Below, piece after piece: positions 42,765-43,326 of a DNA stretch of 64,000 bases (position 1 is its first letter; each line of letters begins with the position of its first letter). The position numbers and the translations under genes are program-made. The notes beneath the pieces were generated by a model. The model saw only the letters and a program-made list of their open reading frames with translations, did no database searches and had not been told where the DNA came from. The stretch is from Myxococcales bacterium (GTDB lineage Bacteria; Myxococcota_A; Polyangia; Haliangiales; Haliangiaceae): assembly GCA_016794525.1 (NCBI GenBank), contig JAEUJY010000077.1, positions 45,091-109,090 on the forward strand, in the 5' to 3' direction.

Positions 42765-42840
42765 GGATCCGTAGCTCAATGGATAGAGCACCGGTCTACG
42801 GAACCGGGGGTTAGAGGTTCGACCCCTCTCGGATCCGCTG
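42765..42840 (+). tRNA. tRNA-Arg (anticodon ACG).
   Basis: Acceptor GGATCCG/CGGATCC; D-loop AGCTCAATGGATAGAGC; anticodon loop CTACGGA. Confidence 0.8.
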
Positions 42841-43326
42841 ATGAGCATCGACCCCGTCACCGATGACGACCTGATGCTGCTCGCCCTCGAAGAGGCGCGG
42901 GCAGCCGGGGCCCATGGTGACGTCCCGGTCGGCGCGATCATCGCGGTGCCCGCCGACGGCCGCTTCGCGGTCATCGGGCGTGGCCACAACCGCCGCGAAC
43001 AACGTGGCGATCCCACCGCGCACGCCGAGATCGAGGCGCTGCGCGACGCCGCCGCCCACCTGGGTCACTGGCGGGTCGAGGCCACGCTGGTCGTCACCCA
43101 GGAGCCGTGCCCGATGTGCGCCGGCGCGCTGGTCAACGCCCGCGTCCGCCGCCTCGTCTACGGCTGCGACAACCCCAAGGCCGGGGCCGTCGCCAGCCTG
43201 TTCACCATCTGCACCGACCCGCGCCTCAACCATCGGCTCGAGGTCGTCGCCGGCGTCCGCGCCAGCGAGTGTGCCGCCGAGCTCAAGCGCTTCTTCGAGG
43301 CGCTGCGGGCCCAGGGGCAACGCTAG
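42841..43326 (+). CDS. tadA: tRNA-specific adenosine deaminase TadA.
   Basis: CDA zinc motifs HAEIEA and PCPMCAGA. Starts directly after tRNA-Arg(ACG). Confidence 0.85.
   Translation: MSIDPVTDDDLMLLALEEARAAGAHGDVPVGAIIAVPADGRFAVIGRGHNRREQRGDPTAHAEIEALRDAAAHLGHWRVEATLVVTQEPCPMCAGALVNARVRRLVYGCDNPKAGAVASLFTICTDPRLNHRLEVVAGVRASECAAELKRFFEALRAQGQR

Follow-up and report, generated by a model that had tools for sequence, protein, structure and literature searches.

In the window, a 64,000-nucleotide (nt) stretch of contig JAEUJY010000077.1 from a Myxococcales bacterium, the gene for the transfer RNA (tRNA) adenosine(34) deaminase TadA lies within a compact cluster of stable-RNA genes on one strand, and its start codon stands 3 nt from the discriminator base of tRNA-Arg(ACG), the substrate of the enzyme. 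The cluster runs from a promoter-like site through tRNA-Ser(UGA), tRNA-Ser(GCU), tRNA-Arg(ACG), tadA, tRNA-Ser(CGA), tRNA-Ser(GGA) and the small signal recognition particle (SRP) RNA to a terminator. Judging from the sequence, it is rather likely that tadA is expressed from a tRNA-punctuated, near-leaderless messenger RNA (mRNA), which would be freed by processing of the 3' end of the tRNA before it and the 5' end of the tRNA after it.

The junction between tRNA-Arg(ACG) and tadA

The junction reads ...CGGATCCG, then CTG, then ATG. An earlier note on this DNA had placed the tadA start a few nucleotides past the tRNA, and its coordinates are right, as the ATG follows discriminator G42837 after 3 nt. 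A gap of this size cannot hold a promoter or a terminator between tRNA-Arg and tadA. No Shine-Dalgarno or GGAGG-like sequence is found upstream of tadA except within the folded tRNA itself. According to the sequence and the end of the Rfam match, tRNA-Arg(ACG) does not encode CCA, and C42838 could represent its position C74. ARAGORN calls the anticodon as acg, and the loop read from the sequence, CUACGGA, has U33, A34, C35 and G36 at their places in the cloverleaf.

The junction was compared among relatives, whose loci comprise the DNA around close homologues together with four loci from wider scans (L001, L081, L082 and L084; loci are given L numbers and database proteins P numbers). Sixteen distinct Kofleriaceae-like loci, with TadA 70-100% identical, reach far enough to be used and form the clade considered here. 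Gene order is the same in all 16 of these, and in 15 the start codon, either ATG or GTG, lies 2-6 nt past the discriminator. The spacer measures 3 nt in the window, L161-164, L165-167, L168, L169 and L173, 2 nt with a GTG start in L170 and L174, 4 nt in L171, L172, L175 and L176, 5 nt in L082 and 6 nt in L081. Among the relatives, the spacer sequences are CT, CTG, CGA, CTCC, CTCG, CCGC, CTGC, CAACG and CTTCTC, and the 3' half of tRNA-Arg is identical throughout the clade. L084, with a TadA (65% identical) under the clade threshold, has tRNA-Arg(ACG) directly 5' of tadA as well, with an ambiguous start at a TTG or ATG ~4-10 nt past the tRNA.

While the gap stays at 2-6 nt, the peptide ahead of an invariant methionine (M12 in the window) changes in length through in-frame insertions and deletions, counting 5, 6, 7, 10, 11 or 16 residues among the clade loci, and the start codon is thus anchored to the end of the tRNA. 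In nine sequences of equal length, pairwise differences at codon positions 1, 2 and 3 number 82, 110 and 144, respectively, the third position being the most variable. The anchored start and this codon-position pattern together point to ATG 42841 as the true start.

Gene calls in the databases disagree on this point. P0014, P0017, P0050 and P0055 (147-150 amino acids) begin at an internal methionine, and P0033 and P0048 (204-206 amino acids), available as protein entries only, reach far upstream of the abutting start known from related loci. In L168, the locus of the 150-residue P0014, an ATG abuts the tRNA just as in the window, and the 11 codons are identical in the two. It is this abutting start that is probably correct, and the entries starting at M12 or extended upstream are probably mis-called.

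Two relatives have lineage-specific insertions upstream of tRNA-Arg. In L172 (827-1123), an ~82-nt element occurs in tandem duplicate with a strong hairpin, GCTTGCGACCCTCC..GGAGGTCGCAAGC, and in the spacer of L176 (1066-1296) the 5' half of tRNA-Ser(GCU) occurs twice in truncated form. Despite these insertions, the gap from tRNA-Arg to tadA is still 4 nt in both.

Signals at the two ends of the cluster

A consensus scan of positions 42000-44300 returned exactly one promoter-like and one terminator-like site, located at the two ends of the cluster (Table 1). The independent tadA promoter and intervening terminator, which the earlier note had named as what would speak against its proposal, are therefore absent from between the two genes. 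The promoter-like site has a conserved AAAATC block upstream and a GC-rich GCGCGTC downstream of the -10 element, and such a layout, with an upstream block and a GC-rich stretch past the -10, is typical for stable-RNA promoters. Both hexamers and their spacing are kept in 10 related loci with divergent flanks, the -10 reading TATAAA in L172. The terminator hairpin, which ends in a T-run, is likewise kept at the same position in relatives, with compensatory changes in its stem. The tRNA genes and the tadA open reading frame (ORF) share one strand, no signal separates tRNA from ORF, and conserved signals flank them jointly, which is the pattern of a mixed tRNA-mRNA operon. It is thus highly probable, as far as sequence can indicate, that the cluster is co-transcribed.

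One further element lies inside the cluster, namely the conserved CTAGCTTT motif upstream of tRNA-Arg. It is kept in those clade members with TadA at least 73% identical, while the spacer hosting it otherwise diverges, with lengths of 40-135 nt. The motif has no recognizable -35 element and could be a weak internal -10 or a determinant in the leader recognized by RNase P.

tadA and neighbouring tRNA genes across bacteria

The linkage was surveyed in 160 diverse tadA loci, 80 from species-representative genomes and 80 from metagenomes, which encode TadA 44-73% identical to that of the window and were scanned for tRNAs. The upstream flank is long enough in 153 loci, and 22 of these have a same-strand tRNA whose 3' end lies no more than 100 nt before the expected start; this is tRNA-Ser(GGA) in ten cases, tRNA-Arg(ACG) in eight, tRNA-Arg(CCT) in two, and tRNA-Arg(TCT) and tRNA-Glu in one each. 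On the downstream side, 148 loci extend far enough, and in 72 of them a same-strand tRNA begins within 150 nt of the tadA stop, at a gap of at most 20 nt in 28 of the 72; its identity is tRNA-Ser(CGA) (67 loci) or tRNA-Ser(GGA) (five loci). Both sides of tadA are occupied by tRNAs in 15 of the 160 loci, and among 40 genome loci, 14 have the SRP RNA no further than 2.5 kilobases (kb) from tadA.

The pairing of tRNA-Arg(ACG) with tadA far exceeds chance, being seen in 8 of 160 loci against a random expectation that we estimate at far under 1 in 160 from one to few gene copies per multi-megabase genome. Beyond the clade, it occurs in L056, from a Poribacteria metagenome-assembled genome (MAG) that has the complete gene order of the cluster, in L064, from another Myxococcales MAG, and in the metagenome loci L119 and L125, and a Bacillota MAG (L027) shows the order Arg(ACG)-Arg(CCT)-tadA.

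In Acidimicrobiia, the abutting position is taken by tRNA-Ser(GGA), a tRNA without A34. This is seen in 10 loci, with a gap of 0-5 nt in nine of them. In L035, L036, L065 and L114, the ATG even shares its A with an encoded CCA (..CCGCCATG..), so that a single precursor molecule cannot yield an intact CCA as well as an intact 5'-AUG unless it is repaired. A start overlapping or touching the end of tRNA-Ser(GGA) was also noted in L012, L015, L017, L019 and L031, the junctions of all nine loci lying at positions ~2420-2510 or 1495-1501. tRNA-Ser(CGA) follows 10-60 nt past the tadA stop, and the SRP RNA is encoded divergently ~90 nt upstream of tRNA-Ser(GGA), so the sole available promoter region serves the tRNA and tadA together. 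By sequence comparison, the abutment of the tadA start to a tRNA 3' end thus recurs with a non-substrate tRNA in another phylum.

tRNA-Ser(CGA), which is no TadA substrate either, stands 3' of tadA across several phyla and often only 10-20 nt away, as in Streptomyces (L016, L025 and L047), Acidobacteriota (L011) and Bacillota (L042). In a Planctomycetota MAG (L023, 3786-4263), the RNase P RNA (RF00010, 288 bits) is encoded on the other strand, ~800 nt past tadA and beyond an intervening tRNA-Pro, so that here, too, tadA has stable-RNA genes as neighbours.

Since tRNA-Ser(GGA) abuts tadA, tRNA-Ser(CGA) is the commonest partner and tRNA-Arg(ACG) lies upstream in only eight loci, the linkage is not specific to the substrate. 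The earlier note had proposed a co-transcript of substrate and enzyme; the shared transcript is borne out insofar as the 3-nt gap, the single conserved promoter and terminator and the anchored start predict it, whereas the substrate-specific link is weakened by the tRNA-Ser(GGA) and tRNA-Ser(CGA) partners. The conservation across Myxococcales to which it looked holds for all 16 Kofleriaceae-like loci and for L064, but no tRNA lies near tadA in other Myxococcota of the survey (L010, L013 and L014), nor in the surveyed Planctomycetota. On the loci compared, the placement of tadA inside a cluster of Ser/Arg tRNAs and SRP RNA is an ancient and widespread arrangement. The general rule is tadA within a Ser/Arg tRNA operon, with the pairing to its substrate as one configuration, and this Arg(ACG)-tadA pairing is possibly the ancestral one.

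A long-range complement around the tRNA-tadA-tRNA segment

Two 14-nt arms lie 1146 nt apart in the spacers after the first and the last tRNA (Table 1) and bracket Ser(GCU)-Arg(ACG)-tadA-Ser(CGA)-Ser(GGA). The 5' arm is preceded by a conserved GCTGACAACCGAA, and the TAG that completes ...CGAATAG forms the first three bases of the arm. When the two spacers were shuffled, an exact complement of 14 nt was reached once in 20000 shuffles. A duplex-energy test of the two spacers against shuffles gave no significant result (z -1.7 to +0.8); it is uninformative because GC-rich spacers always yield low energies, and the exact-complement shuffle test was used instead. Eight relatives have the pair at 13-16 nt with 100% complementarity. 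In L001 and L082, the arms differ in sequence and still pair, GTCACGCA(A)GTGG with CCACTGCGTGAC in the former and CACGCAGG with CCTGCGTG in the latter. The complement is missing or shifted in L172 and L176, and no equivalent was found in the distant loci L056, L027 and L084. These observations are suggestive of a long-range helix, a candidate processing stem that would enclose the tRNA-tadA-tRNA segment. If it forms in RNA, the whole bracketed segment must be one transcript.

Another complement of 13 nt, between the 5' coding part of tadA (42881-42893) and the terminator stem (43813-43825), was set aside as chance, as it falls on conserved LALEE codons and is lost in L161.

Features of the cluster and identity of TadA

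The five tRNA genes of the window all lie on the + strand within 42440-43684 as found by ARAGORN, and all five are confirmed by Rfam. None encodes CCA. Position 74 is C in each, the trailers at 42524-42526, 42698-42700, 42838-42840, 43457-43459 and 43685-43687 reading CAA, CTG, CTG, CTT and CAA. Some orthologous tRNAs of relatives encode the full CCA, for example tRNA-Ser(UGA) in L168. The SRP RNA match reaches 63 bits against a gathering score of 40 and covers model positions 1-97, that is, the full length.

Table 1 Features of the tadA cluster, in window coordinates.
Feature	Position	Strand	Evidence and remarks
Promoter-like site TTTACA-16 nt-TATACT	42390..42417	+	~22 nt before first tRNA
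tRNA-Ser(UGA)	42440..42523	+	first gene of unit; ARAGORN; Rfam tRNA, 58.2 bits
5' arm TAGCTCGATCGTCG	42540..42553	+	spacer after first tRNA; 100% complementary to 43700-43713
tRNA-Ser(GCU)	42606..42697	+	ARAGORN; Rfam tRNA, 61.3 bits
Conserved CTAGCTTT motif	42750..42757	+	ends 7 nt 5' of tRNA-Arg; contains TANNNT-like TAGCTT
tRNA-Arg(ACG)	42765..42837 (Rfam); 42765-42838 (ARAGORN)	+	TadA substrate; Rfam, 65.4 bits
CTG spacer, 3 nt	42838..42840	+	discriminator to tadA ATG; sequence
tadA	42841..43326	+	tRNA adenosine(34) deaminase, 161 amino acids, ATG..TAG; ORF with profile/homology evidence
tRNA-Ser(CGA)	43373..43456	+	ARAGORN; Rfam
tRNA-Ser(GGA)	43599..43684	+	ARAGORN; Rfam
3' arm CGACGATCGAGCTA	43700..43713	+	spacer after last tRNA; ends 7 nt before SRP RNA
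Small SRP RNA (ffs)	43721..43815	+	last gene of unit; Rfam RF00169
Intrinsic-terminator-like hairpin, 14 base pairs (9 G-C), then CCTTTTTCGG	43815..43856	+	directly 3' of SRP RNA

The 46-nt spacer 3' of the tadA stop holds a GC-rich hairpin of 8 base pairs at 43335-43355 on the + strand, CCCGGTGC-GGAAT-GCGCCGGG, without a T-run. It drew no terminator call in the scan, and the relatives, whose corresponding spacer measures 5-92 nt, do not conserve it; it might protect the 3' end of the mRNA. In the window, the cluster is flanked by a divergent 408-residue ORF and a 631-residue ORF, and serS and dnaX are not adjacent. In relatives, serS lies 5' of the cluster (L161-163, L168, L172, L175 and L176), and dnaX lies 3' of the SRP RNA, as identified by Pfam in L172 and by the N-terminal peptide ...ARKYRPQTF, read from the sequence, in L162, L084 and L110.

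The ORF is assigned to the TadA-type deaminases, and A34 editing activity is predicted for its product. It matches the NCBIfam TadA equivalog NF008113 with E=2e-41 and 141.4 bits against a cutoff of 150, over profile positions 7-154 of 165, the next-best NCBIfam family being RibD at just 29.7 bits. In Pfam it matches MafB19-deam and dCMP_cyt_deam_1. The 12 top sequence matches in the PDB are all bacterial TadA or TadA-type proteins (best 2b3j at 7e-35, then 7cph, 2nx8, 1z3a and others), and cytosine and guanine deaminases are at or below 1e-14 in significance in the same comparison. H61-A62-E63 and P89-C90...C93, corresponding to the HAE and PCxxC motifs, are invariant in an alignment with TadA of E. 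coli and S. aureus, two sequences used solely for this alignment and as bait in searches. The nearest database homologues are labelled Kofleriaceae or Myxococcales, in agreement with a Myxococcales source.

Proposed expression of tadA and alternative explanations

Transcription from the promoter at 42390-42417 would give a ~1.4-kb precursor running from tRNA-Ser(UGA) through the SRP RNA and ending at the hairpin at 43815-43856. RNase P would cut the 5' ends of the tRNAs. As all five lack an encoded CCA, their 3' ends would be expected to arise by an RNase Z-type cut, placed at the discriminator or immediately past it and followed by CCA addition. In Bacillus subtilis, CCA-less tRNA precursors are reportedly cut endonucleolytically by RNase Z (Pellegrini et al. 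2003). The same cuts would free the tadA mRNA with the 5' end 5'-p-(C)UG-AUG, thus with a leader of 2-3 nt, and with a 3' end at or before the 5' end of tRNA-Ser(CGA), set there by RNase P. Translation would be Shine-Dalgarno-free, leaderless or near-leaderless, and would begin once the bulky tRNA is gone; removal of the tRNA would probably be needed first, since a tRNA fold lying only 3 nt ahead of the AUG should obstruct the mRNA channel of the ribosome. In this way, TadA synthesis would be tied one-to-one to transcription of the tRNA operon that contains its own substrate, with weak initiation keeping output low. A broader version, in which TadA comes from a tRNA-punctuated, leaderless message in at least two phyla (Myxococcota and Actinomycetota/Acidimicrobiia) and a Kofleriaceae-like helix (42540-42553/43700-43713) loops out the processing domain, is plausible but tentative, and should rather be doubted than assumed; within it, phyla beyond those two would probably be included.

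Several points weigh against a near-leaderless, tRNA-punctuated message. In E. coli, extra 5' nucleotides and a 5'-monophosphate lower leaderless initiation and mRNA stability, and a leader of 2-4 nt may be poorly translated. For Myxococcota, no survey of transcription starts or leaderless mRNAs was found in the literature. The second in-frame ATG (42874, M12) may act as an additional start. The lone outlier of the clade, L001, has a spacer of 26 nt, and the distant lineages with tRNA-Arg(ACG) have spacers of 9-25 nt, some with a Shine-Dalgarno-like sequence (L119 and L125), so that the leaderless form is not obligatory. A minimum-free-energy fold of the junction (42755-42920) did not recover the cloverleaf and is uninformative on the accessibility of the start codon. 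Finally, the CTAGCTTT motif could act as an internal promoter, in which case the set of tRNAs on the transcript would differ, with tRNA-Arg and tadA still sharing it.

An unlikely but appealing explanation is that tadA adjoins tRNA-Arg(ACG) precisely because this tRNA is the TadA substrate, the adjacency serving autogenous feedback or editing in cis. In its feedback form, binding of TadA to the anticodon arm of tRNA-Arg before processing, ~40 nt 5' of the start codon of tadA, would control processing or translation of the tadA message, much as threonyl-tRNA synthetase acts on a tRNA-like operator of its own gene, thrS. The same tRNA abuts tadA in 16 of 16 distinct Kofleriaceae-like loci, it adjoins tadA in the distant L056, L064, L119 and L125 and, as a variant, in L027, at a frequency (8/160) beyond chance, and in L172 the gap from tRNA-Arg to tadA is 4 nt even though the spacer between tRNA-Ser(GCU) and tRNA-Arg has grown to 297 nt. 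However, the abutting tRNA in the 10 Acidimicrobiia loci, tRNA-Ser(GGA), lacks A34, the commonest partner of tadA is tRNA-Ser(CGA) with 67 loci, and most tadA loci, including Myxococcota L010, L013 and L014, are without a nearby tRNA-Arg. E. coli tadA, too, presumably does not lie beside its substrate genes. From sequence, feedback and simple co-expression are indistinguishable. The adjacency may also merely reflect an inherited order, serS - tRNA-Ser - tRNA-Arg - tadA - tRNA-Ser - ffs - dnaX, with the tight junction as incidental compaction and with conventional translation, for example from Met12 or by S1-type Shine-Dalgarno-independent initiation, off any read-through transcript. The neighbourhood is indeed old and widespread, with serS and dnaX in relatives and the SRP RNA near tadA in 14/40 genome loci, B. 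subtilis has tadA-scr-dnaX, and some annotations start the protein at Met12 (P0014, P0017, P0050 and P0055). Still, the other spacers of the cluster are 36-142 nt long in the window and freely variable among relatives, so there is no general pressure for compaction. A start that stays 2-6 nt from the tRNA over N-termini of 5-16 residues is hard to explain if those codons are unused, and the locus of P0014 itself (L168) keeps the tRNA-abutting ATG and the same 11 codons. Compaction of an inherited order is accordingly quite improbable.

Least probable of all, with only a slim chance of being right, is a promoter hidden in the tRNA-Arg gene, from which a primary leaderless mRNA, independent of the operon, would begin on the A of the ATG or right beside it. 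Leaderless primary transcripts are common in Actinomycetota and Deinococcota, and such a promoter would account for start codons pinned at a fixed position, as well as for the Acidimicrobiia loci in which the ATG overlaps CCA, where a cut 3' of CCA leaves no intact AUG. Against it, the scan found no match inside or after the tRNA, and neither the 12 nt before the ATG (TCGGATCCGCTG) nor the equivalent stretch in Acidimicrobiia (ACCCCTTCCGCC) holds a TANNNT-type -10. A tRNA is also too constrained to accommodate promoter elements without visible deviation, and the 3' half of the clade's tRNA-Arg is identical. Release of a near-leaderless tadA mRNA by tRNA processing remains the preferred account.

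Relation to known systems

The closest known parallel is the tRNA punctuation of mitochondria (Ojala, Montoya and Attardi 1981; reviewed in PMC3790967). As there, the ORF in the window is flanked by tRNA genes on one presumed polycistronic precursor, and RNase P and RNase Z would generate the ends of the mRNA, leaving a leader of 0-3 nt without a Shine-Dalgarno sequence. Unlike mitochondria, the bacterium is free-living, with a large genome and no compaction pressure, and just one protein gene would be punctuated. Furthermore, the 5' gap of 3 nt is strict, whereas the 3' gap is not a direct abutment but 46 nt in the window (5-92 nt in relatives). The embedded gene encodes a tRNA-modification enzyme, and its processing is predicted from sequence.

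Mixed tRNA-mRNA operons offer a second comparison. The E. coli operon thrU-tyrU-glyT-thrT-tufB is of this kind, with tufB ~100 nt past thrT, and in both the tufB and the secG-leuU operon the protein gene still has an ordinary leader that includes a Shine-Dalgarno sequence. The secG-leuU operon of E. coli is likewise known as a mixed operon (PMC2241853). As in the window, one promoter serves the tRNAs and the mRNA in these operons, which RNase P or RNase E then separates. In contrast to both, only 3 nt lie between a tRNA and the start codon in the window, and the ORF is an internal one that has tRNA genes before and after it.

The gene neighbourhood itself has a counterpart in B. subtilis, serS ... 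tadA - scr(ffs) - dnaX - ybaB - recR. There, tadA stands by the SRP RNA gene and near tRNA-Ser, serS and dnaX, and these neighbours occur likewise in relatives of the window and in other phyla. Unlike B. subtilis, the window has five tRNAs with tadA among them and abutting tRNA-Arg(ACG). Finally, promoter-defined leaderless mRNAs are known from Actinomycetota and Deinococcota (PMC4633059, PMC3848588, PMC4681348, PMC4007540). The tadA message would resemble them in having its start, ATG or GTG, at or within a few nucleotides of the 5' end and no Shine-Dalgarno sequence. While those are primary, 5'-triphosphate transcripts whose ends are set by promoters, the tadA mRNA is predicted to be a processed, monophosphate species.

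Mixed operons, punctuation, leaderless mRNAs and the tadA-scr-dnaX order were thus all known beforehand, and the new element, as read from the sequence, would be a tadA start abutting a tRNA within a stable-RNA operon. A literature search, with most subscription journals outside its full-text coverage, found no tadA in tRNA operons, no tRNA-abutting tadA start, no leaderless expression of tadA and no tRNA punctuation in free-living bacteria. One apparent match concerned the unrelated TadA pilus ATPase.

Implications

Adenine base editors derive from TadA, an essential enzyme, and, to our knowledge, the setting of its level in bacteria has been little studied. If the proposed route is true, it would represent a clean case of bacterial tRNA punctuation, a free-living counterpart of that in mitochondria, in which a leaderless mRNA arises from RNA cleavage and not from promoter placement, and the long-range helix would resemble the processing stems of ribosomal RNA operons. 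The annotated TadA starts behind the 150/147- and 204-206-residue entries would be corrected. The survey further exposes a very widespread and unexplained tadA - tRNA-Ser(CGA) - SRP RNA linkage, along with a candidate long-range helix in a tRNA operon. For the bacterium itself, the arrangement would provide a built-in scaling of a tRNA-modification enzyme with tRNA output and, in the window, with the transcription of its own substrate.

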